64,000 nucleotides of DNA from Candidatus Eiseniibacteriota bacterium (GCA_965224245.1 OZ245046.1:1536001-1600000); one strand, 5' to 3'; shown: positions 3,199 through 48,511, counted from the stretch's first letter. Translations and numbers: made by a program. The notes: a model not told the origin generated them from the sequence alone.

Positions 3199-4551
3199 AT
3201 GCCTCCGCCGGCATCCCAATCGCTCGGCCCGGCGCCCCGCGCGCCGGACGGGATCGAGGCGCAAGTGGCTCGTTTTCCTTGGCTGCTCGCTCTCGTGCTG
3301 GCCCTCGCGGGCTGCACGCCTGGCTATCTGGTCGACGGGGATGCCGCGATGGTGCGCGGCGACTACGGCGAGGCCGAGCGGGTGCTCCAGCGAGCCCTGA
3401 TCGTGCACCCCGACGACGCGCGCATCCTGAACCGGCTCGGCTGGGTCGCGCTGAAGGAGTCCCGGACCGACGCCGCGCTCGAGTATCTGACGCGGGCGCG
3501 TGAGCTGGATCCCACGAACGGCGAATCCATCCTCTACCTCGGCATGACCTACGAGGCGCGCGACGACGTGGACGCTGCGGTCGACACGTACCGGCACTAC
3601 GCGTCGCTGGGCGCGCTGTCTCGCGACAAGGGACGCATCCGCGATCGGCTGGAGGCGCTCTCGCGGCGACGGGCCGAGATCTGGGCCGTCGAGCGCCGAG
3701 CGGCCGAGGACAGTCTCGGGGCCGCGCCCACCGACGAGCGCTCGCTGGGCGTGGTCGCGATGTCCCTCTCGAGTGACGACGAGGACTACGCGGGTCTCGG
3801 CGCGGCGCTGGCCGGACAGCTCAGCACCGACCTGGCGAAGGTGCGTGCGCTGACGGTCGTCGAGCGTCTCCGACTCGATGCGATCCTGCGCGAGCTGGAG
3901 CTCGCCGCGTCGGGCGCGGTGGATTCGCGCACGGCCCCCCGCGTTGGACGGCTCCTCGGCGCGCGCACGATCGTGTCCGGCGACATCCTCCCGCTTCCCG
4001 ACGACGTGATCCGTGTCGACCTGGCCATCGTGGACACCGGCGCGGCCCGCGTGATGGCCCAGGTCGGTGACGAGGCGGCGGCCACGGACTTCTTCGAGCT
4101 GGAGTCGGCGCTCGCCTTCAGCATCCTGGACGTGATGGGCATCGAGATAAGCGAGCGCGAGCGGGAGGAGATCGCCCGCGCGCCGACGAGGTCCCTGGCC
4201 GCATTCCTCGCCTACGGGCGGGGCCTGGAGGCCGATCGCGCAGGGCGGCTCGCGGAGGCCGAGAGCGAATACCGGCAGGCTCTGGCCCTGGATCCCTCCT
4301 TCGCCGGCCCGAGCCAGGCGCTCGGCGACCTCGGAACGGGCGCCGTGCCCGTCAGCGATGCCATTGCCACGCTCACCCCGCCGTCCGCGGTGCCGGCAGG
4401 GGCACCCACGGTGGACGACCGGACGCTGGATCTTCTGGACGTGGTCGGTGACGGCACCTGGGGAGAGCGTCCCGACGACGGGCGCGTCGACCCGAATGCG
4501 TCCCAGGTCGAGATCCCGCGTCCGCCGACGCCACCGGAGGGGGGGAAGTAG
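3199..4551 (+). CDS. Lipoprotein with TPR repeats and CsgG/HfaB-like domain
   Basis: Lipobox 'LALAGC'; TPR-like helices; 'LTVVERLRLDAILRELEL...TAPRVGRLLGARTIVSG'; alternative GTG start at 3265. Confidence 0.7.
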   Translation: MPPPASQSLGPAPRAPDGIEAQVARFPWLLALVLALAGCTPGYLVDGDAAMVRGDYGEAERVLQRALIVHPDDARILNRLGWVALKESRTDAALEYLTRARELDPTNGESILYLGMTYEARDDVDAAVDTYRHYASLGALSRDKGRIRDRLEALSRRRAEIWAVERRAAEDSLGAAPTDERSLGVVAMSLSSDDEDYAGLGAALAGQLSTDLAKVRALTVVERLRLDAILRELELAASGAVDSRTAPRVGRLLGARTIVSGDILPLPDDVIRVDLAIVDTGAARVMAQVGDEAAATDFFELESALAFSILDVMGIEISEREREEIARAPTRSLAAFLAYGRGLEADRAGRLAEAESEYRQALALDPSFAGPSQALGDLGTGAVPVSDAIATLTPPSAVPAGAPTVDDRTLDLLDVVGDGTWGERPDDGRVDPNASQVEIPRPPTPPEGGK

Positions 4552-5658
4552 ATGCGCGCGATCAGGGTCACCGGGCTCCGAGCCGCGGTCTCCGCCGTCG
4601 TGCTCGCCGCCCTTCCATCGCTCGCGGCAGCGGGCGGTCACGTGACGGTCGGCGCGGGCGTCGATCGCTGGTCCTGGGACGAGGACGACGTCACCGAGGT
4701 CGGGACCACCGCGACGCTGGGCCTGGAGCTCACGCCGACGGTCACGCTGGAGGCCGTCACCGGATTCTCGGACGTCTCCACCGACATCGGTCCCGGGATC
4801 TCGGGGCTCACCGACACCCAGCTTCGCATCACGGCCGTTCCCCGGCCGGGGGCGATGCTGCGGCTCGGCGTGAACGGTCCCACCGGACAGAGCGAGTTCG
4901 ACGGCGAGGATCTCAGCGCGATCCTGTACCTGACCGATCGCCTGATGAGCATGCCCACGCGCGCGATCGGGCGTGGCGTCGACGTCGACCTGTCGGCCGC
5001 GTACGCCGTCCAGCTCGGATCGGCGGCGCTCGGCGGCGGCATCGGCTACCTCGTCCGCGGAACGCTCACGCCGTTCGCGGACGGAGGCGAGTACGATCCC
5101 GGGGACCGGCTGTCGCTGGCGCTGGGCCTGGATCTCGGGTCGCACGCCTGGCTCGTGCGGCAGAACCTGCGCGTGGCGACCTTCACCGAGGACGTGTACG
5201 ACGATGAGCCCCTGGTCGAGTCCGGCACGCGCGTGGAGTATGCGCTGCGCGGGGTCCGTCGGGCCGTCGGACGCGACCTCTGGGCCGCGTTCCAGTACCG
5301 GGACTTCGGTGAGGCCGAGGCCCGCTCGGACAGCCTCGACGACGCGTCGTTCAATACGGGCAGCCAGGGCGACGTCAAGGTGTCGATCGGCGCCGACCTG
5401 ACGCTCTCGCCGCGCTGGCGGCTGAACCTCTCGACCGGGCTCCGTTTCCTGTCCGAGAACGCCCAGGGCTCCGAAGGCGGAAACCGGTTCGACATCGGTG
5501 CGGACGCGTCCACGCGGCTGCGGCCCGATCTCGTCGTCTCGTTCGGCGCCGGCATCGGATCGGCGTCGGTGGACGCGGCGTCGTCGACGCTGGGCGTCGC
5601 CGACGATGCGTCGTTGACCGGCCTACGGGCCTCGCTCCGCGTGCGCCGGGAGTTCTGA
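4552..5658 (+). CDS. Outer-membrane beta-barrel protein
   Basis: Signal peptide, alternating amphipathic strands, C-terminal Phe ('SLRVRREF'). Confidence 0.65.
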   Translation: MRAIRVTGLRAAVSAVVLAALPSLAAAGGHVTVGAGVDRWSWDEDDVTEVGTTATLGLELTPTVTLEAVTGFSDVSTDIGPGISGLTDTQLRITAVPRPGAMLRLGVNGPTGQSEFDGEDLSAILYLTDRLMSMPTRAIGRGVDVDLSAAYAVQLGSAALGGGIGYLVRGTLTPFADGGEYDPGDRLSLALGLDLGSHAWLVRQNLRVATFTEDVYDDEPLVESGTRVEYALRGVRRAVGRDLWAAFQYRDFGEAEARSDSLDDASFNTGSQGDVKVSIGADLTLSPRWRLNLSTGLRFLSENAQGSEGGNRFDIGADASTRLRPDLVVSFGAGIGSASVDAASSTLGVADDASLTGLRASLRVRREF

Positions 5659-5736
5659 TGCCGCCTGAGGACCGCGCTGGACGCCCACGCCGTGCGCGTC
5701 CGGCGCGCGGGGGCTCTCACGCGAGCGGGTGAGGCC

Positions 5737-7911
5737 ATGGACGAGCTGCCTCGCTACATCCGTCACGTCGGTGAGGTGCTGGCGTCCGCGCTCGCCGACA
5801 CGCACGAGAACGTGACGTATCTCGATCGCGGCGGCATGAGCGTGTTGTTCACCGCCGACCACAAGAAGCTCCGGCAGCGTCACGCGATCAAGGTGTTCAC
5901 CCACGACAGCACGGACGTCGACGACGCGTTCCGGCGCTTCGAGCGTGAAGCGGTCCAGATCGCCAAGCTGAATCACCCGCACATCCGGCGCATCCACGAC
6001 GCCCGCGATCTGCCGGATGCCCGGCTCTCGTTCATGGTCATGGATTTCGTCGACGGCGACAGCCTGTCGGTGCGGCTGAAGCGCGAGTCGATCTCGGTGG
6101 CCGACGGCATCGCGATCGCGTCCCAGGTCACCGGCGCGCTCGGGGCCGCGCACGACCAGGGCATCATCCACCGTGACATCAAGCCCGGGAACGTGCTCCT
6201 GGATCGGGACGGGAAGGCGTATCTGGCCGACTTCGGGATTGCCCGGGATTCGGCCGATCCGGCGCTCACCCAGGCCAACGCGGTTCCGGGAACCGAGCGC
6301 TTCATGGCGCCCGAGCTGTTCGACGGGGTGCCGGCCACCGCCCGCAGCGACCTGTACGCGCTGGGCTGCCTCCTGTACCGGATGTGGCTCGGCGAGGACC
6401 CCTACGCCCGGATCGGGCTGCGGCTGAAGGCCGAGATCGACGCCGGCGTCGTGCACGAGCCCGTGGCTCCCCGGTCGCGGCGGTCCGACCTGCCGCCTCG
6501 CGTGGCGGAGCTGATGGTCGGTCTGGTCGCGATCGACCCGAACCGGCGTCCCGGCGGCTGCCGGGAAGTGCTCCGCGTGCTCGAGGGGGCGCGCGAGTCC
6601 GAGCTGTCCGATCCGACGCTGATGGATGCCACCGAGCGGACCCTGTGGCGCGCGTCCTCCGGGGGCGACGTTCCGACCGGCGGCGCCAGCGGTGGGCCCG
6701 CCGTCGGCGACCGCACCGACCCGCGGACGACCGACACCCCGGCGCCTGCCGGATCGCACGAGGCGCCGGTCGACACGCGCACGGAACGGGCGCCGGCGGA
6801 TCGGACCCGGGCGAGGCCGCGCTGGATCGCGTGGACGGCGGCCGCCGCCGGCGTCCTCGCGTGCGTGATCGCGTTCTGGGTCTGGCGCACATCGACCGGC
6901 GAGACGCCACGGGGCCCCGGCCCGGGCAGCGCGGTGTCGCTGCAGGTCGTCTCCGAGCTGGAGCTGCCGCCGGAGGGTCCCGCGTCCCTTCGCGTGCGGG
7001 TCTCCGGAGGGGAGGGCCGGGAGCTCGCGCTCACGGCGTTCCCGGAGGGGGGCGTCGCGTGCGGGACACCCGCGGACGGGTCCGGGGTTCAGAACTCGGA
7101 CGGATCGATCGTACAGGTGATCGACGCGGGTGCGCCGCGTCCGGCCACCGTGGAGGTCGCCGTGTCGGCCGCCGACGGCGCGGCCGGTCCGAACGTCGGA
7201 TCGGTTCTCGTCGAGCTGCGCGACGACGGCCGGCTGGTCGGCAGCGAGCGCGTCTCGGTTCGAGCCGTGGCGCCGGCCGGCCCGGCGGTGGTCGGCGTCA
7301 CGATCGCCCGCGAGGGGGGGCGGGGCGGCGAGCGGGTCGGGGAGCCGGCGCGCGTCCGGGTGTCGGTCACGAACGACGGTGCGGCGCGCACCGGGGAGGT
7401 CGACGTTCATCTCTTCGTCGAGTCGGTTCGAGCCGACGTCGACGACGCCGCGCACACGCTGGATCCGATCGAGCCCGGTGACACGGCCGAGGTGGTCGCG
7501 ACGGTGACGCCGCGCGACGGCGGGCGGCTCAGCATCGGGGCGCGAGTCGGGGACGGCACCGAGGTGGCCGAGGTGATCCGCACGACGTCCTGGCAGGTGG
7601 CGGCGAGACCGACTCCGCCGGCGGGGCCGCGTACGGTCCGTGTCCGGTGCCGGGTCGAGGGGCTGGCGACCACCGACGACGGACGGCAGCCGGTGGTGTT
7701 CGCGAACGGGCGTGAGGTCGGCCGGGCGCCGCTCGTCTTCGAGTTCGAGGCCCGGGACGGCGACACGATCGAGGTCACGGCCACGAGGGCCGGGTACACG
7801 TACGAGAGGCAAGGAGATCTCATCACCGTTCGTCCGGAAACCGATGAGTATCGGGTGGTCTTCACGGCCAAGCCGGCGTGGAATCTGTCCGGGGGACGCG
7901 ACGGAGGCTAG
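5737..7911 (+). CDS. Membrane-anchored Hanks-type Ser/Thr protein kinase (kinase 1) with extracytoplasmic Ig/CARDB- and PEGA-like domains
   Basis: 'RGGMSVLF', 'AIK', 'HRDIKPGN', 'DFG', 'GT..FMAPE', 'SDLYALG'; Pro/Thr-rich linker; one TM helix; beta-rich C-terminal part. Confidence 0.9.
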   Translation: MDELPRYIRHVGEVLASALADTHENVTYLDRGGMSVLFTADHKKLRQRHAIKVFTHDSTDVDDAFRRFEREAVQIAKLNHPHIRRIHDARDLPDARLSFMVMDFVDGDSLSVRLKRESISVADGIAIASQVTGALGAAHDQGIIHRDIKPGNVLLDRDGKAYLADFGIARDSADPALTQANAVPGTERFMAPELFDGVPATARSDLYALGCLLYRMWLGEDPYARIGLRLKAEIDAGVVHEPVAPRSRRSDLPPRVAELMVGLVAIDPNRRPGGCREVLRVLEGARESELSDPTLMDATERTLWRASSGGDVPTGGASGGPAVGDRTDPRTTDTPAPAGSHEAPVDTRTERAPADRTRARPRWIAWTAAAAGVLACVIAFWVWRTSTGETPRGPGPGSAVSLQVVSELELPPEGPASLRVRVSGGEGRELALTAFPEGGVACGTPADGSGVQNSDGSIVQVIDAGAPRPATVEVAVSAADGAAGPNVGSVLVELRDDGRLVGSERVSVRAVAPAGPAVVGVTIAREGGRGGERVGEPARVRVSVTNDGAARTGEVDVHLFVESVRADVDDAAHTLDPIEPGDTAEVVATVTPRDGGRLSIGARVGDGTEVAEVIRTTSWQVAARPTPPAGPRTVRVRCRVEGLATTDDGRQPVVFANGREVGRAPLVFEFEARDGDTIEVTATRAGYTYERQGDLITVRPETDEYRVVFTAKPAWNLSGGRDGG

Positions 7912-7913
7912 AC

Positions 7914-8921
7914 ATGAAACGCAGGATCGCAATGTTGACGATGGGCCTCGGGGTCGCGCTGGTCGTGACCTCGGGTACCTGGGCCGCGGAGTCGGTCGCG
8001 ACGCTCGATGATGCCCTGGCCGCCTACTACGACGCGGAGTTCGAGACGGCGACCGACGTGCTCGGGCGCTACCTCGACCGGGCCGACCTGGACTCAGAGT
8101 CGCGGGCCGAGGGGCTTCTGTATCTGGCGAAGGTTCAGTGGGCGCGCTCCTCGGAGTCGGGCGCGCGGGCCGCGCTGGAGGAGATTCGCGCGTTCATGCC
8201 CGACTATCGGCCCGAGATGCGCAAGGTGCTCGACATCAAGAACCTCTACTTCGACGTGTTCGGGGCCGCGCTGTCGCGTGAGCCCGGCATCCACACGATC
8301 GCGATCGTGGACTTCACGAACGACTCGTTCGGGAAGGACAAGGAAGAGCTCGAGGGCATGGGCCGCGGCATCGCGCACCTCCTGATCGCCGAGCTCGGAC
8401 ACGCGTTGAACGTGCGCGTCGTGGAGCGCGAACGGCTCGACTACCTGCTGAAGGAGCATGAGCTCAGCAAGTCCGATCTCGTGGACCCCGAGACGGCCGT
8501 CCAGGCCGGCAAGCTCCTCGGCGCGCAGTCGTTCCTGATGGGTGGCTACATGAAGATCGGCGATCGGATGCAGATGTATCCGCGACTCGTCGTGACCGAG
8601 ACCGGCGAGATCAAGCCGCTGAGCCGCGGTCGGATCGAGGGCGACTTCGACGACCTGGCCGAGCTGATCGACGACCTGGCCAGGGCGCTCGTGGAGGACG
8701 TCGGCGGCGTTCTGGAAGGGGAGACCGATCGTTCCGGCGCGCCGGGCATCGACGCGCTGAAGCGCTACGTCGACGGCCTGGAGCGGCTGGACCGCGGAGA
8801 CCTGGACGGAGCCGCGATGGCCTTCCAGGCGGCGCTCGACGCGCATCCGCAGTACGAGGAGGCGGAGGCCTACCTGATCGAGATCCAGCCCCTGGTCGCG
8901 ATGGCCGACACCGATCAGTAG
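7914..8921 (+). CDS. Exported TPR + CsgG/HfaB-like protein
   Basis: Signal peptide 'MKRRIAML..WA'; 'TIAIVDFTN', 'VRVVERERLDYLLKE', 'AVQAGKLLGA'; TPR-like helices at both ends. Confidence 0.7.
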   Translation: MKRRIAMLTMGLGVALVVTSGTWAAESVATLDDALAAYYDAEFETATDVLGRYLDRADLDSESRAEGLLYLAKVQWARSSESGARAALEEIRAFMPDYRPEMRKVLDIKNLYFDVFGAALSREPGIHTIAIVDFTNDSFGKDKEELEGMGRGIAHLLIAELGHALNVRVVERERLDYLLKEHELSKSDLVDPETAVQAGKLLGAQSFLMGGYMKIGDRMQMYPRLVVTETGEIKPLSRGRIEGDFDDLAELIDDLARALVEDVGGVLEGETDRSGAPGIDALKRYVDGLERLDRGDLDGAAMAFQAALDAHPQYEEAEAYLIEIQPLVAMADTDQ

Positions 8922-8954
8922 GGACCTCGACCGGATCGGCCGCGGTGCGCCGCG

Positions 8955-9482
8955 TCAGGCGCCGGTGCGCCGCGGCTCGGGCGGGGGCGCGAACAACGCC
9001 ACGCCGAGCGTGGTCTCGCCGACCACGAAACGCTGTCGCTGGACGAGCGGCTCGTACGTCATCGGAGCCGGATCGGACGGCTTGCGGCGAACGCAGAGCG
9101 TGAGCCCCCGCGGTCGCACGGCCAGCTTGGCCAGGCAGTCGGTCAGGTCCTCGCGAACGGCCCGGATGCCACCGCGCGCATCGTCCACGAAGCTGAGCGG
9201 CGTGTCGCCGTCGCGGAGCTCGAGAATCTCGACCGGCTCCTGCGCATGGGGGTCGATGCCGTAGAGTCGACCCTTCACCGGCCACGCGACCCCGCGCAGA
9301 CACGCCGGTCCGTCGTAGGGGTCGAGCTCGGGCCAGATCACGGGGCACTGCGGACACTCGGTGGCCCCGATGGGCAGGACGTGTCCCTTGGCACAGACGC
9401 GGACGGGATCGATCGACTTGCCGCACACGGCGCACACCGTCGCCCGGAGATCGTTCTCGGCGTAGCACTGCCCGCACTTCAT
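8955..9482 (-). CDS. Double Zn-ribbon protein with possible degenerate FHA-like beta domain
   Basis: 'CGQC..CAVC' and 'CAKGH..CPQC'; start overlaps the upstream stop (ATGA); C-terminus 'LVQRQRFVVGETTLGV' resembles the end of FHA domains. Confidence 0.6.
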   Translation of the reverse strand: MKCGQCYAENDLRATVCAVCGKSIDPVRVCAKGHVLPIGATECPQCPVIWPELDPYDGPACLRGVAWPVKGRLYGIDPHAQEPVEILELRDGDTPLSFVDDARGGIRAVREDLTDCLAKLAVRPRGLTLCVRRKPSDPAPMTYEPLVQRQRFVVGETTLGVALFAPPPEPRRTGA

Positions 9483-10138
9483 CGAGCGCTCCCCACCAGC
9501 TCGAGGGGCACGATCTGAATCGTCAGATGCGAGTGCGCGGCGAGATAGGCCGCGTCGTCGCCGGGGAACTCCGCGCGAAGGACGTCCCAGGACAGGTGCA
9601 CGCGCTCGTCCCCGTCGATCACGAGCTCTTCGACGCCCCCATGGGCCGGGCAGACCGACCGCTTCATGCTCTCCACGTAGAAGCCGTTCGCCGAGAAGCA
9701 GATCAGCTTCGCGCGCCCGGGCTCGACCATCTCGACCACGAGATGCGTACGTGAGACGGTCCCGAAGAGATCGGTTCGCTTTGGAAACACGTGCTGGTGC
9801 GTGATCGGGATGCTGCGCCCGTGGGCCTCGATGGACGCGCCCTGGGCGTGCCGGCCGAAGAACACGGCCTCGTGCCGGCGGAGCGGGTAGGCGCATCCCA
9901 GCATCGGGTCGACGACGCCCGGATCGGCGCGCTCGGAGTAGATGGCGACGACGCCGAGAACGGGGTCGTGCCAGGACGGGGCCTCCTCGTCGGCGCCGGG
10001 GCGCGGGACCAGCGTGATGGACGTCGTCTCGTCCACGTCGGCGTGTCGCGGCGGGACGTACTCCGCGTTGACCGCCCCGCACTCGGGGCAGTGATGGATG
10101 AGGGGCCCCAGCCCGCTCTTGCATGCCGAGCAGCTCAG
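9479..10138 (-). CDS. Zn-ribbon + FHA domain protein (GarA/OdhI-like architecture), probable CTG start
   Basis: 'CSAC..CPEC'; linker 'DETTSI'; FHA pThr-binding motifs 'FFGR', 'VSRTH', 'SANG'; SD GGAGGT 6 nt before CTG. Confidence 0.75.
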   Translation of the reverse strand: MSCSACKSGLGPLIHHCPECGAVNAEYVPPRHADVDETTSITLVPRPGADEEAPSWHDPVLGVVAIYSERADPGVVDPMLGCAYPLRRHEAVFFGRHAQGASIEAHGRSIPITHQHVFPKRTDLFGTVSRTHLVVEMVEPGRAKLICFSANGFYVESMKRSVCPAHGGVEELVIDGDERVHLSWDVLRAEFPGDDAAYLAAHSHLTIQIVPLELVGSAR

Positions 10139-10171
10139 CGTCCGACCTCCGGTTGTGGGATCCGGCTGACG

Positions 10172-13496: not shown

Positions 13497-13498
13497 TC

Positions 13499-20394: not shown

Positions 20395-20546
20395 TCGGCT
20401 CGGTGGCCCGGTGAGCGCGTTTGCGCTTTACTTGCTCCGGACGTGCCTTACACTGTTCCGGTTATCAATTCTCGACATGCGCGTCGACACTCGTCGGGCT
20501 CCCGTCGAGGGACCGGCGCGCCGCCCGGGAGGTCGGAGGGAACAAC

Positions 20547-32497: not shown

Positions 32498-32506
32498 GTT
32501 TTCTCG

Positions 32507-33183: not shown

Positions 33184-33185
33184 GT

Positions 33186-35901: not shown

Positions 35902-35911
35902 GAGAGTCGTC

Positions 35912-37144: not shown

Positions 37145-37145
37145 G

Positions 37146-37601: not shown

Positions 37602-37625
37602 CGTTCGCCGCCGAAGGAACCTCCG

Positions 37626-39760: not shown

Positions 39761-39767
39761 GTTCCGC

Positions 39768-40421
39768 ATGGGATGCACCAAGAAGAAGAAGAAGAAGAAG
39801 GGCTACTACCGGCGCGGTCAGAGCTACAAGACCAAGTGCAAGTCGGGCTGGCGCGGTGACGGCTGTCAGATTCACCACATACTGCCCTGCGCCTCGATGA
39901 ACGCGCTCGAGAACGGAACCGCGTGCCCGGACATCACGCCGGACGAGCTCCAGATCCTGCAGAACGCGCTGTGGAACAGCGACTGGAGCATCAACGACAA
40001 GCACAATCTGATCGGAATGCCCACGAACGCGGTCCACAAGAAGAAGGACGGAAAGGGCACCCAGAGTCTCCCGTCGCACAACCTGGACCACTGGGGCGGC
40101 GGCAGCTACAACGATGACGTGACCGAGTGGCTCAACAAGAACATCATCGGGAAGTACCGTGCGAACGAGGACAAGCACGCCATCACGGTCACGAGCATCG
40201 AGGGGAACCTGAAGACCGGCAGCGACACGTACCGGCAGCGAATCATCGATTTCGGCAAGCGGGGCGACGGGTACACGGGAACCGCCGACTGCTTCGAGCA
40301 CCGTCACGAGCAAGACGTGAAGCCGTACTGGTTCAAGCCGTTCTCGATGGCCGTGAAGCCGAGCCCGCGGAACCCGGGGATGCCCTCATCGGCGATGACG
40401 GGCATCTTCAAGAAGATCTGA
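39768..40421 (+). CDS. AHH-family (HNH/EndoVII fold) nuclease, putative T6SS effector
   Basis: 'QIHHILP', 'WSINDKHNLIGMP', 'LPSHNLDH...SYN..V'; basic N-terminus; followed by immunity-like genes. Confidence 0.8.
   Translation: MGCTKKKKKKKGYYRRGQSYKTKCKSGWRGDGCQIHHILPCASMNALENGTACPDITPDELQILQNALWNSDWSINDKHNLIGMPTNAVHKKKDGKGTQSLPSHNLDHWGGGSYNDDVTEWLNKNIIGKYRANEDKHAITVTSIEGNLKTGSDTYRQRIIDFGKRGDGYTGTADCFEHRHEQDVKPYWFKPFSMAVKPSPRNPGMPSSAMTGIFKKI
39780..39800 (+). repeat. (AAG)7 trinucleotide repeat encoding K7
   Basis: aagaagaagaagaagaagaag read directly at the start of the AHH gene. Confidence 0.95.
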
Positions 40422-40448
40422 GCCGTCGACAGTCATGGAGGATGGGCG

Positions 40449-41015
40449 ATGTTTGTGGTGTGGCAGGTCGTGGTGGCGCGCGGAGACTGCACGGTGACCA
40501 CGCTCCAGAACTTCCCCGAGGCCTTCGCGATCCGCGACGCGGTGTCGGTGGCCGATCGGTTCCCCGATGACGCGTTCTTCGCGATGAACCCACAGAACCC
40601 CAAGGACATCCGCCTGCCCGACCAGGTGCGCACCTACGAGGGGCTGGTGGTGGTGTCGTCGGCGATCCGGGACGTGGTTCTGGAGATCGGCGGTGACGTC
40701 GAGCTCTTGCCGGTGGCGATCCACGACCACCGCGGCCGGGTCGCCAGCTCGGACTACTGGATCGTCAACCCGCTCACCAGGATCGACTGTCTGGACGTGG
40801 CCAACAGCCGTCTGACCGTCAACGCGATCGACAACTCGTACTCGGGATGCGACTCCCTCGCGATCCTGCCCGATCGCGTTCCGGAGGACGCGACGTTCTT
40901 CCGTCCCTCGGTATTCCCGGAGCCGATCGTGTGCCGAAGGGACGTCGCCGACCGGATCGTGTCCGGGGGTTTCTCGGGCATCGACTTCGTGGGAGCTCGG
41001 GAATGCATCATCTGA
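40449..41015 (+). CDS. Imm11/DUF1629-like immunity protein
   Basis: 'VVSSAIRDVV', 'VELLPVAI', 'YWIVNPLTRIDCLD..S'; directly after the AHH nuclease. Confidence 0.75.
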   Translation: MFVVWQVVVARGDCTVTTLQNFPEAFAIRDAVSVADRFPDDAFFAMNPQNPKDIRLPDQVRTYEGLVVVSSAIRDVVLEIGGDVELLPVAIHDHRGRVASSDYWIVNPLTRIDCLDVANSRLTVNAIDNSYSGCDSLAILPDRVPEDATFFRPSVFPEPIVCRRDVADRIVSGGFSGIDFVGARECII

Positions 41016-41040
41016 CCGACGACCGGCCCGGGGCGACGCG

Positions 41041-41832
41041 ATGCCGCTGAGCGCGCTCGAGGTCCGCGAGGCGGTCGAGGACGGGCTGGCCGTGCTGGCG
41101 GCCGGTCATCCGATCACCGACACGTGGTCCGACGTCCTGGAGCTGGAGTCGGCGTTCGCGGCGCTCGGCATCACCGTGCTGCTGGAGGATCTCGACGTCG
41201 CCCGCTTCCGGCGACACCTCTGTCAGGCGGCGCAGGCCCGATGCTTCTTTCTCGAGCGCGCGAACCGGGCGCCGGAGACGATTCTCGGCGAGGCGATCAG
41301 CCGGAGCGAGGCGGTCCTGGCCGCCCTGGCCGCCGGGAGCTGGACGCTGGCCCGGCGGATCGAGTCGCTGTCCCGGGCTGACTGGTTCCCGGACGCCGAG
41401 TACGAGGAGGACTTCGCGTTCACCGCGGCGGTGCACGCGCTCGTGGAAGCGCATGGCCGGGTGGACGCGGCCGTCCTGACCCCGGTCCTCGAGCGGATCG
41501 CGGCGGCCGTGGACGGAGCGGAGTATGCCCGGCTGGCCGTCCTGGAGAGCCTCGTGTCCGGCGATCCCGGTGCGTTCGAACGGGCCCTCGAAGATCGCAT
41601 CGAAGAGCGTCGTGCGACGTTCGACATCGCGTATCCTGAGGGCCGCAGCCGGATCTTCGACGCACACCGTTGCGTGTTCGTCGAGGGACTTGCGCTCATC
41701 GAGCTGGCAAGGGTGCGCGGATACGATCTCGAGCCCGAGCACGCGTTGTGTCCCTCGATGGGGCGCGCCTCCGGCGAGCCCGAGCCACCGGAAGACCTGT
41801 TCGAGGATCTCGCCAGACAGTTCGGCGTCTAG
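41041..41832 (+). CDS. Imm49-like helical immunity protein
   Basis: 'YEEDF', 'D..AFERALEDRI', 'VFVEGLALIELAR.RG......LCP'. Confidence 0.65.
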   Translation: MPLSALEVREAVEDGLAVLAAGHPITDTWSDVLELESAFAALGITVLLEDLDVARFRRHLCQAAQARCFFLERANRAPETILGEAISRSEAVLAALAAGSWTLARRIESLSRADWFPDAEYEEDFAFTAAVHALVEAHGRVDAAVLTPVLERIAAAVDGAEYARLAVLESLVSGDPGAFERALEDRIEERRATFDIAYPEGRSRIFDAHRCVFVEGLALIELARVRGYDLEPEHALCPSMGRASGEPEPPEDLFEDLARQFGV

Positions 41833-41851
41833 CCTCAACCCGAGGACCTCC

Positions 41852-43390
41852 ATGAACGGCGGCAGCTGGATTCAGATCGGCGGTCACGACCGCCTGGCGC
41901 ACACGGCTCCGGCGGCGCGGGAGCGGACCGAGCGCTCGCGCTTCCGCGTGCTCGTGATCGGCGAGTTCGGGGGGGAGTCCAAAGACGCCGGCGCGCTCGG
42001 CGAGCGCCGCCCCGTGCGCGTGGATCGCGACACGCTCGACGAGTGCTTCGCCCGCATCGCACCGAGCGTCGTGGTCCCCGCGTCGGCCTCGGGGGAGTCG
42101 ACGTCACTCGCGCTCTCGGACCTGGACGACCTCGAGCCCGATGCATGGGTGGAGACGCTACCGCTCACGCGCGACCTTCTGGATCTGCGCCGCCGGGTCG
42201 GGTCCACCTCGGGGCCGGTGTCGTCGGCCGCGCTCGACGAGGCACGGGCGCTCCTGGGTCGGCGAGCTCCCGAGCCGCCGCGTTCGGGCGAAGCGGAGGG
42301 CTCCACCGGCGCCGCTCCGGTCACCGAGTCCTCCACCGGCGACGCCGGTGGAGAGTCGCTTCTGGACCAGGCCGTGCGCGCCACCGACGTCGACGCGGGC
42401 CGACCGGACGATCTCCTCCGACGGCTCGTGCGCGAGGTGACCGCGCCGTACGACACCGATGCGCCCGCGGCCGACGAGGCCGACATCCGCGCGGCACTCG
42501 ACCGGCTGATCGGCGAGGCGCTGGGGGCCGTCCTGCATCGGCCCGAGGTCCGGACGCTGGAGTCGAGCTGGCGGGCGCTCCGCTGGCTCGTGCTGGGCCT
42601 CGAGTCCGATCGCGACGTCGAGGTGCGCATGGTGGACGCGCGTGCCGAGGAGCTGCGCCGCGACGCGACGGACGCGGAGTCGCTGGAGACCATGGAATCC
42701 TATCGCGCGTGGCTGGACCCGGCCTCCGGCGGCGCCGACCCGTTCACGCTCCTCGTGACCACGTTCGAGCTCGGCCCGTCGGCGGAGGACGCGACGCTCG
42801 CGTTCGTCGTGGCCAGCCTCGCCCGATCGATCGGGGCGCTCGCGCTGGCCACGTGTACGCCCGGCTTCTTCGGCGCCGAGACCGCGCCCGGGCTGGCCTC
42901 ACCCGACGAGTGGACCGCCTCTCCCAGGGATCCCGCGTGGGATGCTCTCCGGTCGCATCCGGTGTCGGCCCATCTCGCACTGGTTGCGCCGCGCATTCTC
43001 TGGCGCGTGCCGTTCGGATCGGCGACACGCCCCGTCGAGGCATTCCCGTTCGAGGAGCTCGCCGAGGGAGCGGGCCTGGATCGGCTTCTCTGGGGGGCGT
43101 CGGCGTTTCTGCCGGCGCTCGTGATGGCGAACGCGCACGCCACCGGGGTCTCCGGCGCCGCATCCCGGCGCGCGACGCTCACGGGGCTTCCGTACTTCGT
43201 GCACACGTCCCCCGACGGGGAGCGCGAGGCCGTGCCCGTGACCGAGGTGGCGCTGCCGGTCTTCGCCGCGCGCCGGATGGAGGAGTCCGGCGTCACCCCG
43301 ATCCTGATCGTACGCAACACCGATGGGGTCGAGATCGGTCCGATCCGGTCGTTCTCGAAGAGCGGCGAGCTGGCAGCGGGGCTCTCGTGA
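41852..43390 (+). CDS. TssB-TssC fusion-like sheath protein
   Basis: N-part TssB-like ('FRVLVIGEFGG', 'VDRDTLD', 'LDDLEPD'); C-part truncated TssC-like ('VLHRPEVRTLESSWRAL', 'PRILWRVPFG', 'LPYFV', 'TEV'). Confidence 0.8.
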   Translation: MNGGSWIQIGGHDRLAHTAPAARERTERSRFRVLVIGEFGGESKDAGALGERRPVRVDRDTLDECFARIAPSVVVPASASGESTSLALSDLDDLEPDAWVETLPLTRDLLDLRRRVGSTSGPVSSAALDEARALLGRRAPEPPRSGEAEGSTGAAPVTESSTGDAGGESLLDQAVRATDVDAGRPDDLLRRLVREVTAPYDTDAPAADEADIRAALDRLIGEALGAVLHRPEVRTLESSWRALRWLVLGLESDRDVEVRMVDARAEELRRDATDAESLETMESYRAWLDPASGGADPFTLLVTTFELGPSAEDATLAFVVASLARSIGALALATCTPGFFGAETAPGLASPDEWTASPRDPAWDALRSHPVSAHLALVAPRILWRVPFGSATRPVEAFPFEELAEGAGLDRLLWGASAFLPALVMANAHATGVSGAASRRATLTGLPYFVHTSPDGEREAVPVTEVALPVFAARRMEESGVTPILIVRNTDGVEIGPIRSFSKSGELAAGLS

Positions 43391-45816
43391 GCGGCACCGA
43401 CGATCGCACGCCCGCCGGATTCCGCGGCGTCTCCCGCGCGCTGTTTCCGGGAACGGTGGTGTTCGATCGGTACCGGCTGGTGCGCCCGCTGGGCCGCGGC
43501 GGCTTCAGCATCGTCTGGCTCGCACACGACCTCCAGCTCGAGATGGACATCGCGCTGAAGTTCCTGTCGGACGACATCGTCGCCAACCCCGAGGCGCTCT
43601 TCGATCTGAAGCGCGAGACGAAGATGTGCCTGTCGCTGACCCATGCGAACATCGTGCGCATCCATGGCTTCTTCGAGTCGCCAGACCTGGCCGCCATCGC
43701 GATGGAGTACGTGGACGGCGGGACGATGTCGTCGTTGAAGATTCGCCAGCCCTCACGGTGCTTCGAGCCCGAGGTCCTCAGCCCGTATCTGCCGCCGGTC
43801 GCGAGCGCACTCACCTACGCGCACGAACGGGTGCGGGTGGTGCATCGCGATCTGAAGCCGGGGAACCTGATGGTGGACCGGCGCGGAGACATCCGGATCG
43901 CCGACTTCGGAATCTCGCGGAGCATCAGCGACACCCAGACCCGGCTCTCGCGGCAGGCCTCCAGCTCGGGAACGCCCGCGTACATGGGGCCGCAGCAGAT
44001 GATGGGACAGCCGGCCAGCGTGCTCGACGACGTCTACTCGCTCGGCGCCACGCTCTTCGATCTGGTGGCGGGGAAGCCCCCGTTCTACACCGGTGCGGTC
44101 TCCGAGCAGGTGCTGAACGTGCCGCCACCGACCCTGGCAGCGCGGCGCCGTGAGCTGGGGCTCGAGGGTGCGCCCATCCCGCCGGCCTGGGAGGAGACGG
44201 TCGCCGCCTGCCTGGCCAAGAAGCCCCAGGATCGACCGTCCTCGATCAACGCGGTCCTCATGGGGCTCGGGCTGGTACCGGCCGACCCGGACCTCGCGAG
44301 TGCACCGCCGGCGGACGCGACACGACTGGTCTCCACGCCGCGCCCCAGAACCCCGAGTGCCGACGTCCCGCCCGCCGAGGAGGACGCCACGCAGACCGGC
44401 TCGGGCCCGTCGGCGTCGGGGCGGGTCGACGCGGCGGGAGCGACCGCGCCGACCGACGTGCCGGGGTCGGCCGACCCCACAGACGATCCCGCGAGCGCCG
44501 ACCCCGGAGTCGTCACGGGGGAGGAGGACGCCGCCCCGACCGGCTCGCGACCGGCCCCGCCGGCCGCCTCACGGCCGGACGAGGCACCGGCCGCATCCTC
44601 GAGCACCGCTCCACCACCGGCGGCCTCGACGCGCCCGCGCTCCACCGGCGTCGGGGTCTCCGGGACGCGGGGAGGCCGTCCGCGCTGGCTGATACCCGTC
44701 GTACTGATCGTGGTCGTGGTCGGTGCGCTGGCCACCGCGGTCGCCCTTCGAGGGGGTGGCGACGCCCCGACGGCACGGGATGACGGGACGGACCCCGGCT
44801 CGGTGGCGAGCGGCGTGACCGGGGGCGGAGAGGCCCCATCCGGCTCGGAGCTCGCGTCGACCGAAACGGACGGAAACGCGGGCGTGGACGGTTCCGGCTT
44901 GACGCCCGAGGACACCGCGGAGCTCGATCGGCTTCTGAGAGCGGGCGCGTGGTGGGATGCGCGCAATCGACTCCAGGCGCTGGCCGGCGAGGCTCGAGAT
45001 CCCGATCAGGTCGCACAGTGGGAGCGGCGCGTCGACGAGGCGCGCGAGTCGGACCTGACCGACCGGCGGCGCGCCATCGAGTCGGCGATCGCCGCGGGCA
45101 ACCTGGACGACGCCATGGCGGACATCGCCGACGCCGAGCGGATCGTCCAGCCCGGAGACCTGCCGCTCGCGACGTGGCGCTCCCGGGTGGACTCGACGCG
45201 CACCGCGGACGCGGCCCGGCGTCGCCTCGAGGACGGCATACCCGGTCTCCTGGCCGCTCGCGAGTGGGAATCCGCCGAGCGTGACATCGATCGATACGTC
45301 GGCTCCGGAGGAGACGTCGCGCGCGCGGAGACCTGGCGACGCGCGATCCGCACCGGACGCGAAGCCGACCGCCGCGCCGAGGAGGCCGCGGCGAAGGCCG
45401 AGCGGGAGCGTGACTCGCTCCTGGCACACGAGGCCGCACCCCCGGGGCCTCCGCCGCCCGATGCGCAGGTCGTCGACGAGCCGTCGCCGACCGAACGGAT
45501 CGAGGCGCTCTTGTCGGCGTACGAGCGTGCCAAGGAGACGCTCGACGTCGAGAGCTTCGTCGCGCTGTGGCGAGCGCCACCGGCGTCGCTCGCCGATCAG
45601 CTGCGCCGGGCCTACCGGGAGTATCGCAGCCAGCGCGTGGAGCTGAACGTGAAGTCGATCGCCGTGGCGGCGGACGGTCAAAGTGCCCGGGTGCGATTCC
45701 ACGAGGTGGACGACATCTCGCTGGCCGCCGGCTCGGTCGATCCCGTCTCGCGCGATCTCGAGATGCACGTCGTCTTGACCCCCGAGGGCGACTGGAAGAT
45801 TTCGTCGATCGAGTAG
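43387..45816 (+). CDS. Membrane-anchored Hanks-type Ser/Thr kinase (kinase 2, PpkA-like by context)
   Basis: GTGA overlap; 'LGRGGFSIVW', 'ALK', 'HRDLKPGN', 'DFG', 'GTPAYMGPQ', 'DVYSLG'; Pro/Ala/Thr linker, TM, helical region, NTF2-like C-terminus ('GDWKISSIE'). Confidence 0.9.
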   Translation: MSGTDDRTPAGFRGVSRALFPGTVVFDRYRLVRPLGRGGFSIVWLAHDLQLEMDIALKFLSDDIVANPEALFDLKRETKMCLSLTHANIVRIHGFFESPDLAAIAMEYVDGGTMSSLKIRQPSRCFEPEVLSPYLPPVASALTYAHERVRVVHRDLKPGNLMVDRRGDIRIADFGISRSISDTQTRLSRQASSSGTPAYMGPQQMMGQPASVLDDVYSLGATLFDLVAGKPPFYTGAVSEQVLNVPPPTLAARRRELGLEGAPIPPAWEETVAACLAKKPQDRPSSINAVLMGLGLVPADPDLASAPPADATRLVSTPRPRTPSADVPPAEEDATQTGSGPSASGRVDAAGATAPTDVPGSADPTDDPASADPGVVTGEEDAAPTGSRPAPPAASRPDEAPAASSSTAPPPAASTRPRSTGVGVSGTRGGRPRWLIPVVLIVVVVGALATAVALRGGGDAPTARDDGTDPGSVASGVTGGGEAPSGSELASTETDGNAGVDGSGLTPEDTAELDRLLRAGAWWDARNRLQALAGEARDPDQVAQWERRVDEARESDLTDRRRAIESAIAAGNLDDAMADIADAERIVQPGDLPLATWRSRVDSTRTADAARRRLEDGIPGLLAAREWESAERDIDRYVGSGGDVARAETWRRAIRTGREADRRAEEAAAKAERERDSLLAHEAAPPGPPPPDAQVVDEPSPTERIEALLSAYERAKETLDVESFVALWRAPPASLADQLRRAYREYRSQRVELNVKSIAVAADGQSARVRFHEVDDISLAAGSVDPVSRDLEMHVVLTPEGDWKISSIE

Positions 45817-45853
45817 CACCGTAACCCGTCTCGAAAGAGGAGCCCGACCCAAC

Positions 45854-47185
45854 ATGACGTTCACTCGCCCATTCGTCAGCGGCGTGCTCGGATGCGTCGC
45901 CGGTCTCGCTGCGACCGGGATCGCAACCAGTGCGTCCGCGCAGAGCCTCAACCTGCGCGACCTGATGACCGACCTCCTGCGCGCGGGGATCACGCTCGCT
46001 CCGCCGGAGGCCGGCCAGGATCACTCCGCGCACTTCAACGGCGAGAGCACGCGGCAGTTCACGGCGATCCGCGAGCTGCAGAACGAGATCGCCCGGCAGA
46101 TCTCGTCGTTTCCGGTCAGCTCGTCGGCCGGCGGGTTCGCCTATCGGCTCGATCCGGTGGCGGGCGTCCTGACGCGGCCGACCCGGAGCTTCGGACCGGT
46201 CTACAGCGAGCGGCCGTACACCGTGGGCGAGGGCAAGTACAACGTCGGACTCAGCTACAGCCGCTTCACGTTCGATCGCTTCGACGGACTGAGCCTGCGC
46301 GACGGAGACATGCAGCTTCTGTTCACGCACGAGGACGTGAACGGGGACGGCTCGCCGCTCGAGTCGCCGGTGGAGGGCGACGTGGTCGCCGCCCGCATGT
46401 ACGTCGACATCGACACCGAGGTGACCACGTTCGTGGCCAACTACGGCGTCAACGACCGACTCGACGTCGGAATCGCCATTCCGCTGATCGACGTGAGCCT
46501 CCAGGTGCTGGTCGATGCCGAGGTCGTCCGGCTCTCGACCGCCGATCAGCCGGAGATCCACCAGTTCCCGAACGGGACGGGCGAGGCGGTGTTCTCGACG
46601 ACCGGCAGCGCGTCGGGTGTCGGCGACGTTCTCCTGCGCTCGAAGTACGTGCTGCCGAACACCCGGGGACTTCTCTGGGCCTTCACCGGCGACGTGCGTC
46701 TGCCGACCGGGGAGGAGCGCAATCTGCTCGGCCTCGGCGAGTACCAGGTGAAGGCCACGGTTCTCGCGTCGCTCGACGACGCCGTGTTCGCCCCGCACGG
46801 GTCGCTCGGCTACACGCTGTCGGGGGGGAGCGTGTCGGACGAGCTCCTGTACTCGGCCGGGGTCGACTGGGCGGTCGATCCCAAGCTCACGCTGGCGGCG
46901 GACGTGCTGGGCCGGTCGTTCACCGAGCTCGACGAGGTCACGGTCGGGACGTCGCTCTGGGAGTACAACTCGGCGCTCACCGGCCCGCCGGTCATCGAGA
47001 CGACCGAGGTCACGTCCATGAGCGTCGCGTCCGGCGAGCGCCGGAACACCGCGTCCCTCGCGGTGGGATTCAAGCTCAACGTACACAGTAACTTCCTCGT
47101 GACGGCGAACGGGCTGGTGCCGCTCGTCGAGACGGGCCTTCGAGACGACTTCGCGTCGCTCATCGGTCTCGACTACAGCTTCTAG
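45854..47185 (+). CDS. Outer-membrane beta-barrel (MetA-pathway/transporter-like)
   Basis: Signal peptide; 'SFGPVYSERPYTVG', 'YGVNDRLDVGIAIP', 'SGVGDVLLRSKY', 'LPTGEE..LLGLG'; terminal 'LDYSF'. Confidence 0.75.
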   Translation: MTFTRPFVSGVLGCVAGLAATGIATSASAQSLNLRDLMTDLLRAGITLAPPEAGQDHSAHFNGESTRQFTAIRELQNEIARQISSFPVSSSAGGFAYRLDPVAGVLTRPTRSFGPVYSERPYTVGEGKYNVGLSYSRFTFDRFDGLSLRDGDMQLLFTHEDVNGDGSPLESPVEGDVVAARMYVDIDTEVTTFVANYGVNDRLDVGIAIPLIDVSLQVLVDAEVVRLSTADQPEIHQFPNGTGEAVFSTTGSASGVGDVLLRSKYVLPNTRGLLWAFTGDVRLPTGEERNLLGLGEYQVKATVLASLDDAVFAPHGSLGYTLSGGSVSDELLYSAGVDWAVDPKLTLAADVLGRSFTELDEVTVGTSLWEYNSALTGPPVIETTEVTSMSVASGERRNTASLAVGFKLNVHSNFLVTANGLVPLVETGLRDDFASLIGLDYSF

Positions 47186-47197
47186 GCGGTCACGGCG

Positions 47198-48511
47198 ATG
47201 ACATGGCGACGACAGAGCCCGGGCCCTCTGATCGGTGGCCCGGGGCGCTCGGCCCTGGTGGCGGTCGCGCTCGTGACGGCCGCGCTGGGGTGCGAGAACG
47301 GTGTGCGCATCCAGCGGGGTGACGGGACCGACGGAACCCCGCTCTGCTCGGTGGGCGTCTCGCGTCTCGACTTCGGGACGGTCACGCTGGACGAAACCGA
47401 GACGCGCTCGTTCGCGCTCCGGAACCTCGGCGACGGCGATCTGGCCATGCGGGTGGTGCTCGAGGACTCCACCGGCACGTTCGCGCTGACGCGCGGGGGC
47501 GGAACGTACCTTCTCGGACCCGGGCAGCTGCGCCGGGTGGAGCTCGAGTTCCGGCCCTCCGATCAGACCGAGTACGGGGCGACGCTGGACCTGGGGCTGA
47601 GCTGTGACGACGTGGAGCTGGTCGGCGTCGGCGACTTCGCACCGGCGTGCTCGGTCACGCCGACCACGGTCGCGCTGGGCACGATCCCGGTGGGACGGGT
47701 GACCGAGCTCACGGTCACCCTGGGAAGCACCGGCGGCGGGTTCGTTTCGGGATCGGTGACCGAGTCCTGTGACGCGGTCGCGGTGCTCTCGGGCGGCGCC
47801 TATTCGGTGCCCAGCGGCGAGACCCACGAGGTGCGCGTCGGCGTGGGGCCGTCCGCCGCCGGCGTGATCTCCTGCGAGCTGGACTTCGCCGCCGGCTGCG
47901 CGACGACGACCGTCACCGCGACCGCCGCCGCCGTGGCGGGCTGCGTGGTGTCGGATCCGATCGTCGAGTTCGACGACGTTCTGGCCGGAAGCGGTGCCGG
48001 CGACGAGCGGACGCTGACGATCGAGAACACCGGGTCCACGACCTTCTCCGGGTCGATCTCGCTGGACTGCGTCGGGGGACCGTTCTCGCTCGTGGCCGGT
48101 GCGGGCGCGTTCACGCTGGGTCCGACCCAGTCGCACCCGGTCACCGTCCGCTTCGCGCCGACCGCGGCCGACTGCGGGAACCAGTCGTGTCGAATCCTGA
48201 CCGGCGTCGTCGCCTGCCCGGAGATCCCGATGACGGGCCTCGGACGAGTGACGTTCACCGAGCAGATCACGAGCATCTTCGCGGATCGCGGCTGCTTCAC
48301 CTGTCATGGGGCGGGAGCGCCCACGCGAAACTGGACCGACTACGACCAGGTGCGGGAAAAGCTGAACTTCGCCAATCCGCCGGACAGCCGGATGCTGCTC
48401 CGTGCCGCCGAAGAGAGTCACACCGGCGGTCGCGACGAGTGCTTCGCGCCCGGCGGCGACTGCCAGCGGACGTTCGTGTGCTGGATCCAGGACGACGCGC
48501 CCCGGAACTGA
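47198..48511 (+). CDS. Lipoprotein with three Ig-like (choice-of-anchor D/ASH-like) repeats and a C-terminal monoheme c domain
   Basis: Lipobox 'ALGC'; three repeats starting 'C.V....DFG.V' and containing 'N.G'; heme motif 'CFTCH'; 'HTGG'. Confidence 0.7.
   Translation: MTWRRQSPGPLIGGPGRSALVAVALVTAALGCENGVRIQRGDGTDGTPLCSVGVSRLDFGTVTLDETETRSFALRNLGDGDLAMRVVLEDSTGTFALTRGGGTYLLGPGQLRRVELEFRPSDQTEYGATLDLGLSCDDVELVGVGDFAPACSVTPTTVALGTIPVGRVTELTVTLGSTGGGFVSGSVTESCDAVAVLSGGAYSVPSGETHEVRVGVGPSAAGVISCELDFAAGCATTTVTATAAAVAGCVVSDPIVEFDDVLAGSGAGDERTLTIENTGSTTFSGSISLDCVGGPFSLVAGAGAFTLGPTQSHPVTVRFAPTAADCGNQSCRILTGVVACPEIPMTGLGRVTFTEQITSIFADRGCFTCHGAGAPTRNWTDYDQVREKLNFANPPDSRMLLRAAEESHTGGRDECFAPGGDCQRTFVCWIQDDAPRN

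Follow-up and report, generated by a model that had tools for sequence, protein, structure and literature searches.

A type VI secretion system in an Eisenbacteria genome whose TagH/Fha scaffold may be split among several proteins

The window analyzed here is a 64,000-nucleotide stretch of the genome of a Candidatus Eiseniibacteriota bacterium (G000:C1:1536001-1600000; genome of 6.9 Mb, 97% complete, ~70% G+C) that carries a type VI secretion system (T6SS) gene cluster. We judge it narrowly probable that this single T6SS is governed by a variant threonine-phosphorylation pathway in which the TagH/Fha scaffold is split among proteins. The proteins in question are X, a Cys-rich and probably kinase-derived protein; Y, a TagH without its FHA domain; ZnA and ZnB, a zinc ribbon-FHA protein and a double zinc ribbon protein encoded divergently from X; and STK1 and STK2, two Hanks-type Ser/Thr kinases (STKs) that bracket the cluster (Table 1).

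To our knowledge, how T6SS firing is controlled post-translationally has been worked out almost solely in Pseudomonas, Serratia, and Agrobacterium. In the H1-T6SS of Pseudomonas aeruginosa, the threonine phosphorylation pathway consists of TagQRST, PpkA/TagE, Fha1/TagH, and PppA/TagG, with TagF opposing it (available text of a 2026 review of T6SS accessory factors, PMC13584744).

Results

Separate genes appear to carry the TagH C-terminal domain and the FHA domain

Genes were called from the G+C content of third codon positions (GC3) and from frame periodicity, because spurious open reading frames (ORFs) are plentiful at ~70% G+C, and the called ORFs were scanned with Pfam and NCBIfam. All 13 core genes tssA to tssM were found, together with tagF and tagJ. 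Pfam matches were well above cut-off for TssA, B, C, E, F, G, H, K, L, and M, Hcp, and VgrG; TssJ was called from its position and lipobox, because the protein at this place gave no match in the Pfam scan. With sheath, baseplate, membrane complex, ClpV, Hcp, and VgrG all encoded, the system belongs to the T6SS core class (T6SS-i type). Genome-wide, VipB gave three matches, all inside the window, and this is therefore the only T6SS of the genome.

The initial annotation had described a complete T6SS with tagF but without an intact Fha/TagH, a PppA-type phosphatase, or TagQRST, and the scans agree. No called window ORF gave a PP2C, T6SS_FHA_C, FGE-sulfatase, or FtsX-type match in Pfam, nor an FHA match at an E value of ≤0.01, and no PppA/TagG-type PP2C phosphatase is encoded in any of them. 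For TagQRST, general Pfam scans of the called ORFs returned no corresponding family; dedicated models were not run. No canonical fha was found elsewhere in the genome either: TIGR03354 (TagH) gave 0 matches over its cut-off and three partial matches covering FHA domains only, and PF20232 (T6SS_FHA_C) gave 0 matches. Pfam FHA had five matches genome-wide, all outside the window, and PP2C_2 had three, at C1:770 kb, 4.54 Mb, and 6.08 Mb, compared to 1.536-1.600 Mb for the window.

The part of TagH that follows the FHA domain appears to be present in Y, in line with the earlier description of this gene as FHA-less and TagH-C-like. When the Y family was compared by hhalign to the TagH of a planctomycete locus (L024), residues 16-236 of Y aligned on residues 126-344 of that TagH, its post-FHA part (89%, E 2e-6, 197 columns), and four of the six family members matched PF20232 (best 5.4e-4). 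Y gave no FHA match in Pfam; it lacks the N-terminal FHA domain that a TagH joins to its C-terminal domain. Elsewhere in the phylum, six loci (L034-L039, in G001, G014, G053, G002, G047, and G046, respectively) carry FHA-less T6SS_FHA_C proteins of ~240 residues immediately ahead of tssJ-tssK, with a divergent membrane protein gene upstream and no X.

An FHA domain is found instead in ZnA, whose gene forms with that of ZnB the divergent zinc ribbon/FHA pair that had been noted beside X. Pfam FHA was matched by five of the six ZnA family members (best 5.8e-6). The AlphaFold2 (AF2) model of ZnA had a mean predicted local distance difference test score (pLDDT) of 73 overall and >80 over most of the FHA-like domain, and its top Foldseek matches in the PDB were all FHA domains (best E 4e-4). 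Residues G95-R96, S129-R130-x-H132, and N151-G152 stand at the canonical phosphothreonine-binding positions. Together, these residues, the structural matches, and the matches of relatives identify ZnA as an FHA domain protein. In the ZnB family, all six members matched DZR/Zn_Ribbon_1. BLASTP comparisons of Y and ZnA with a fused X relative (P0011, see below) and of ZnA with ZnB gave nothing significant. A complex prediction for X and ZnA, run without controls, gave scores of 0.07 and 0.00, with 0.32 as the mark, and was counted neither for nor against binding. Proteins that join an adenylate/guanylate-cyclase-like region to an FHA domain are encoded at C1:6288233-6289462 of the window's genome, where the best match of the ZnA hidden Markov model (HMM) lies, and at 3104-4078 (+) of the planctomycete T6SS locus L026, directly upstream of X.

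X lies mostly in T6SS loci and is accompanied by an FHA domain

X relatives numbered 7 in a word-indexed search and 1210 representative clusters at E ≤0.001 in a full HMMER profile scan, 497 of them at ≤1e-30; their source records bear the name "hypothetical protein" or FHA-derived names only. Among 155 sequences examined, 93 were 600-810 residues long and 23 had at least 1000 residues. The relatives of >810 residues (n = 34) matched Pfam FHA in 18 cases, T6SS_FHA_C in 10, and Pkinase in 3 (E ≤0.001), and in two of the family's proteins (P0011 and P0012) the domain order was X, FHA, T6SS_FHA_C.

Genomic context was surveyed at 17 distinct places of X, namely, 7 genomes from a phylum set of 206 Candidatus Eisenbacteria genomes and 10 further loci from a species-genome collection (the scan of the latter gave 13 loci, of which 3 were dropped as duplicates of G054, G055, and G013). 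In the phylum set, a T6SS (scored by VipB) occurred in 53/206 genomes and X in 7/206, all 7 with a T6SS. Full-length ZnB was found in the same 7 genomes and in no others; its zinc ribbon alone was matched in three further genomes (E 2e-6 to 8e-4). X homologues proved to lie mostly at T6SS loci, at 15 of the 17 places, and at 14 of these X directly heads tss(J)K-L(-M-tagF). At the remaining T6SS-linked place (G013), X runs off the end of its contig; tssA/B/C lie upstream, the ZnB-ZnA-X order is kept, and Y would lie beyond the contig end. At L029 and L030, the flanks of X yielded no core T6SS gene. This distribution and the lack of a canonical fha elsewhere in the genome both favor the initial annotation, which had named the opposite outcomes as refuting it.

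The gene order of the window, with ZnB and ZnA reading leftward and X, Y, the lipoprotein, TssK, TssL, TssM, and TagF reading rightward, was also seen in G054, G007, G008, G009, L018, L021, and L022. In these eight loci and in G013, ZnB and ZnA stand together directly beside X and are transcribed divergently from it. Two loci depart in detail. The ZnA-ZnB pair of G055 lies on a contig separate from that of X, at its end and with a kinase gene 12 kb away, and the X reading frame of G009 is interrupted near residue 446, giving two adjacent ORFs (L015, G009:C14 9618-11964), which could be a frameshift or an assembly error. At the planctomycete T6SS-linked loci (L024-L028), X (711-735 residues) was followed by a full TagH with FHA in 5/5 cases, and the flanks gave no ZnA or ZnB match. 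X is thus fused to an FHA domain, beside a full TagH, or with ZnA, so that an FHA domain accompanies X wherever context or domains were seen. The earlier proposal that Fha function is assembled here from separate parts draws good comparative support from the X-FHA-TagH_C fusions, from the pairing of X with full TagH, and from the strict co-occurrence of ZnB and X.

The C-terminal tail of X is a candidate phospho-acceptor

In ZnA/ZnB-type loci, X ends in an acidic stretch, a Thr-x-Val/Ile triplet, and then basic or Pro-rich residues. This arrangement was found in 9/9 full-length X proteins, with the triplet (TKV, TMV, TLV, TMI, TLV, TMV, TYV, TMI, and TVV) always within the last 12-15 residues, and in 0/5 planctomycete T6SS-linked X proteins. 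In window X the triplet is Thr751-Lys-Val, and Thr751 is invariant in the alignment of X homologues. A stricter form of the pattern, sought in the last 25 residues, was matched by 16 of 93 stand-alone X representatives, compared to 1.3 ± 1.1 (maximum, 6) in 500 shuffles, and the matches include several more distant X subfamilies. Because the tail tracks ZnA/ZnB-type loci and exceeds the shuffled expectation, we infer from these sequence patterns that its threonine may be a phospho-acceptor read by ZnA.

Two intact membrane kinases bracket the cluster

Both flanking kinases are intact in their catalytic motifs, as initially described, and with them all five gene calls of the initial annotation are upheld. 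STK1 has the AIK Lys, HRDIK, DFG, and APE motifs and one transmembrane segment at residues 377-398 (an alternative ATG start lies at 5737), and STK2 has the ALK Lys, HRDLK, and DFG motifs and one transmembrane segment at residues 429-457. Each would thus supply, as judged from these motifs, the intact Hanks kinase domain within a T6SS cluster that is expected of a PpkA/TagE. In PpkA/TagE, a periplasmic vWA domain receives the TagR signal; no vWA family was among the Pfam matches of STK1 or STK2. The pairing of each kinase with a barrel and a lipoprotein was also borne out, for STK1 by a weakly matched barrel and the TPR/CsgG-like lipoprotein upstream and for STK2 by the MetA-type barrel and Ig-like lipoprotein that follow it.

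Homologues of these neighbors recur in T6SS loci of relatives. A kinase with a CsgG/TPR partner follows tagF in G007 and G008. The T6SS loci of G054 and G055 contain homologues of the MetA-type barrel, 49-54% identical; those of the Ig-like lipoprotein are found in G054, G055, and L022, and an STK2-like kinase in the T6SS locus of G054. The window therefore joins two kinase modules that relatives bear singly. Within the flanks examined, an STK was present at 6 of the 15 T6SS-linked places of X; in G055, it is on the ZnA-ZnB contig. By analogy with the H1-T6SS, the flanking kinases may act on this T6SS as a trans-envelope trigger, as the initial annotation had suggested.

A scaffold independent of phosphorylation is the strongest alternative

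Several observations weigh against a split scaffold under phosphorylation control. The window copy of Y gave no PF20232 match at E ≤10 and that of ZnA no Pfam FHA match, and the canonical FHA Arg is Lys in five of the six ZnA homologues, all but the window copy. The ZnA HMM scored the cyclase-linked FHA of the same genome best, not a TagH FHA, and the FHA domain of ZnA is therefore not simply an excised TagH domain; that candidate origin was set aside as unsupported. No STK was seen in the flanks of 9 of the 15 T6SS-linked loci, many of these flanks being short, and Ser/Thr kinases are frequent in these genomes, so that the flanking kinases could be coincidental. The co-occurrence counts were drawn from related genomes (three families) and therefore overstate independence. 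PF20232 was matched in 13/206 genomes of the phylum, none of them an X genome; these 13 have a T6SS and encode FHA-less TagH_C proteins but neither X nor ZnB. Loss of the FHA domain alone therefore does not require an FHA domain in trans, and FHA-less TagH may be the rule in the Eisenbacteria phylum.

These points can be accommodated if X and Y form a TagH-like scaffold that works independently of phosphorylation, ZnA and ZnB are a separate regulator (for example, of a transcriptional or anti-sigma type) that merely shares the divergent promoter, and the kinases belong to unrelated envelope-stress modules. We consider this reading doubtful but deserving of weight. It would parallel T6SSs that have TagH but no PpkA, and the TagH of Vibrio cholerae works without a canonical TagE activator (available text of PMC13584744); the 13 genomes with FHA-less TagH_C speak for it as well, as do the distance of the ZnA FHA from TagH FHA domains and the separation of the ZnA-ZnB pair from X in G055. 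However, a regulator unconnected with X would not be expected to occur, as full-length ZnB does, in exactly the 7/206 X-bearing genomes, to lie beside X in divergent orientation in 9 of the 10 genomes, and to be tracked by the Thr tail of X. A phosphorylation-independent scaffold likewise sits poorly with the presence of an FHA domain wherever the context or domains of X were seen, be it in X itself, in the neighboring protein, or in ZnA, and unrelated kinase modules sit poorly with homologues of the STK1 and STK2 neighbors in the T6SS loci of G007, G008, G054, and G055. We retain the split, phosphorylation-controlled scaffold as the favored reading.

X is probably a catalytically dead kinase derivative

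No Pfam or NCBIfam model matched X, with Pfam tried even at E ≤10. When the X profile was run against PDB sequences, it gave 10 matches, all of them protein kinases and each weak (E 0.12-1.8). In these alignments, "PHLaLsPenV ... LiDLG" of X fell on "HxDxKPENV ... DFG" and "cDlySLG" on the alpha-F motif "DxWSxG." An hhalign comparison of the X family with an alignment of the Ser/Thr kinases of the same loci placed X residues 562-668 on kinase helices alpha-F to alpha-I (78.5%, E 1.7e-5). An HMM of these kinases matched 18 of 155 X family members (full-sequence E 3.7e-6 to 1.9e-3), and in 16 of the 18 it did so in two or three collinear segments with an insert of ~170 residues between them, which corresponds to a beta-sandwich at 447-557 of the AF2 model. 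In the ESM-Atlas, the neighbors of X 335-740 were kinase clusters at 0.92, with shared-feature counts of 144-158 that denote a distant relative or chance; the Cys-rich half (1-335) had no family-bearing neighbors.

In the kinase register, Ala381 stands at the catalytic Asp, Ser383 at the Lys, and Arg386 at the Asn, and the DFG-like Asp410 is kept. X thus departs from an active kinase in that the catalytic-loop Asp, Lys, and Asn are replaced and the N-lobe region, with its VAIK Lys, gives way to a Cys-rich part with conserved cysteines at 142, 153, 156, 163, 187, 190, 242, 245, and 251. These alignments suggest that X probably descends from a kinase, from which it has been heavily remodelled, with a Cys-rich N-terminal half and the loss of catalytic activity, much as the initial annotation's "pseudokinase-like" had implied.

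The fold search did not confirm this origin. The AF2 model of X, built from a 68-sequence alignment, was confident (pLDDT, 88.8; predicted TM score, 0.89). Nevertheless, when the whole model was compared with the PDB by Foldseek, no match reached E ≤0.001, and the matches listed included no kinase; they were nonsignificant (gyrase and BIRC6, TM <0.1) and allow no fold assignment. What supports a kinase ancestry of X is therefore a set of sequence and profile signals that are weak but collinear, and we grade this ancestry as moderately supported. If X were instead a novel zinc-binding structural part, such as a baseplate or membrane-complex adaptor whose kinase-like motifs are convergent or due to chance, then the empty fold search, the missing Pfam Pkinase match, and the nonsignificance of each PDB match would be expected. 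We think this improbable: all 10 weak PDB matches are kinases with the homologous motifs in the right order, the hhalign comparison gives E 1.7e-5, 16 of 155 family members show two or three collinear kinase segments, and 3 of 34 long relatives reach Pfam Pkinase itself.

That the module is in decay, with TagH having lost its FHA, the T6SS under constitutive TagF or transcriptional control only, and X, ZnA, and ZnB as relics, could explain the split X of G009 and the absence of a phosphatase from the called ORFs of the cluster, but it is very unlikely, given that all four genes are intact at 33-44% identity with many invariant positions over three families and further metagenome-assembled genomes (MAGs), have a strong GC3 coding signal, and in ZnA keep the phosphothreonine-binding residues.

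Gene content of the cluster and its surroundings

TABLE 1 Positions and assignments of genes in the window
Feature	Coordinates	Strand	Basis or remark
TPR and CsgG-like lipoprotein	3199-4551	+	Pfam TPR families, CsgG 1.2e-9; signal/lipobox-like N terminus ending LALAGC
Outer-membrane beta-barrel-like protein	4552-5658	+	OMP_b-brl 1.2e-4, below Pfam cut-off; signal-peptide-like N terminus
STK1, Hanks-type Ser/Thr kinase, periplasmic CARDB-like domain	5692-7911	+	Pkinase 6.6e-40
CsgG-like and TPR protein	7878-8921	+	CsgG 4.5e-11
ZnB, double zinc ribbon protein, conserved C-terminal domain without assigned fold	8955-9482	-	DZR/Zn_Ribbon_1; start directly after ZnA stop
ZnA, N-terminal zinc ribbon and divergent FHA	9479-10138	-	Beta-rich domain; relatives match Pfam FHA
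X, Cys-rich, probably kinase-derived (pseudokinase-like) protein	10363-12639	+	758 residues; heads tssJKLM-tagF operon
Y, TagH without FHA domain (TagH_C only)	12636-13496	+	286 residues; start overlaps X stop
TssJ-position lipoprotein	13499-13960	+	Lipobox AAIGC; between Y and TssK, conserved in relatives
TssK	14027-15406	+	Pfam T6SS_VasE 2e-101
TssL	15403-16071	+	Pfam DotU 1.5e-40
TssM	16144-19500	+	Pfam IcmF-related_N 2e-69
TagF	19510-20394	+	Pfam TagF_N 1.3e-16; TIGR03373
TssA	20421-21644	+	Pfam
TssB	21752-22276	+	Pfam
TssC	22273-23760	+	Pfam
Second TssC paralogue, full-length	23923-25449	+	VipB 5.6e-96 and VipB_2; directly after tssC
ImpE/TagJ	25466-26269	+	Pfam
TssE, TssF, TssG	Between TagJ (ends 26269) and ClpV (starts 29762)	+	Pfam
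ClpV	29762-32497	+	Pfam
Hcp	32710-33183	+	Pfam
VgrG	33284-35332	+	Pfam
Spike/effector region	35332-41832	+	DUF6484, TIGR02270-like, PAAR-like, DUF2169, ketosynthase-like, AHH nuclease, Imm11, Imm49
PAAR-like	37146-37601	+	Within spike/effector region
Ketosynthase-like	38666-39760	+	NF004798 1e-30, far below cut-off
TssB-TssC fusion-like, without TssC C-terminal domain	41852-43390	+	VipA 1.4e-9 and VipB 6e-38 in one ORF
STK2, Hanks-type Ser/Thr kinase, helical periplasmic domain	43387-45816	+	Pkinase 1.1e-42
MetA-type outer-membrane barrel	45854-47185	+	Phenol_MetA_deg 1.1e-5
Ig-like-repeat lipoprotein	47198-48511	+	HYDIN/VesB-like Ig 4.9e-13; lipobox ALGC

The second tssC sets the window apart from the relatives examined, which have one canonical tssC at that place. 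Homologues of the TssB-TssC fusion-like protein lie after tagF or ahead of X in relatives. In many of the phylum's genomes with a T6SS, divergent VipB-like genes were found 10-20 kb off the main tssC; they directly follow tagF in L018, L021, and L022, and the planctomycete loci carry two VipB-like copies, divergent, upstream of X. The fusion-like protein may thus represent an additional, conserved part of the sheath type in this T6SS subtype.

The VgrG-proximal cargo region (35912-39760, +) includes a TIGR02270-like protein below the cut-off of its family and the ketosynthase-like gene, an unusual neighbor for a T6SS spike; the AHH nuclease, Imm11, and Imm49 genes come after it. Downstream of the cluster, at 53923-58830 (+), are genes for an ABC-2 type transporter with ABC_transp_aux and DUF4340, which are not of the TagS/T type.

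Discussion

The window resembles the H1-T6SS pathway of P. aeruginosa in having a T6SS cluster with tagF, an FHA domain protein, Hanks-type membrane kinases with periplasmic domains encoded beside outer-membrane and lipoprotein genes, and, in front of the membrane-complex genes, a protein that appears to carry the C-terminal part of TagH. It differs in that the FHA and TagH_C domains are on different proteins, the probably kinase-derived X and zinc ribbon ZnB are added, and general Pfam scans found no PP2C or TagQRST-type genes in it. Moreover, its kinase modules number two rather than one, and the periplasmic parts of the kinases are CARDB-like or helical in place of vWA.

A precedent for part of this arrangement comes from Agrobacterium tumefaciens, in which PpkA phosphorylates TssL (pThr14) and the mark is read by Fha, licensing secretion (available text of PMC3953482). 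There, the FHA ligand is a T6SS component other than TagH, and a phosphothreonine in a terminal tail is bound. In contrast to the window, that Fha is a single canonical protein, TssL is the phospho-acceptor, and a TagF-PppA fusion is present, according to the same text; the candidate acceptor in the window, as predicted from its sequence, is the C-terminal tail of X.

A third comparison is with what may be called the X-TagH family, in which X precedes TagH or is part of an X-FHA-TagH_C fusion. This family, mostly from Planctomycetota MAGs, shares the X fold family (28-31% identity over ~700 residues) and the place ahead of tssJ/K/L/M-tagF. Relative to it, the subfamily of the window has lost the FHA domain of TagH, gained the acidic tail with Thr-x-Val/Ile on X, and added ZnA (with its FHA) and ZnB.

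How new is this system? In the available text of the T6SS accessory-factor review cited above (PMC13584744), the words "pseudokinase" and "zinc" occur 0 times each. Full-text literature searches gave no paper on a T6SS-associated pseudokinase among the matches listed, as judged by title and abstract opening. By the same measure, X and ZnB have no described counterpart. The suggestion that the circuit is a previously undescribed system holds in part. The X family is indeed without a Pfam or NCBIfam model, but the circuit is less unique than first thought, with the X family being large and FHA-less TagH_C being common in the phylum.

The favored reading implies a mechanism. X, Y, ZnA, and ZnB would jointly do the job of TagH, nucleating or licensing assembly of the membrane complex and baseplate, with TagF opposing. 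One or both membrane kinases would sense an envelope cue, STK1 with the CsgG/TPR and barrel proteins as possible partners and STK2 with the MetA-type barrel and Ig-like lipoprotein, and would phosphorylate a threonine, for which the Thr-x-Val/Ile tail at the C terminus of X is the candidate. The FHA domain of ZnA would read the resulting phosphothreonine, in which case the covalent link between X and FHA would have been replaced by a phospho-dependent one. No dedicated phosphatase was found among the called ORFs, and reversal would depend on TagF or on any of the genome's three PP2C genes, all outside the window. In its most far-reaching form, the X-FHA-TagH_C scaffold would have become phospho-switchable, with a kinase modifying the X tail, ZnA and ZnB docking, Y licensing the T6SS, and two sensor modules converging on the switch; taken as a whole, this fullest form is tentative and we rate it as unlikely.

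These data bring to light a large, probably kinase-derived family (1210 clusters, no Pfam/NCBIfam model) whose link with TagH extends over Planctomycetota, Eisenbacteria, and further uncultured lineages. The TagH scaffold occurs in at least three architectures, fused to X, adjacent to it, or split with the FHA domain in trans, and these form a natural series for asking what the FHA domain of TagH binds and what the pseudokinase contributes. If the proposed switch is true, the window would offer a natural case in which a non-covalent link gated by a kinase has taken the place of a domain fusion.

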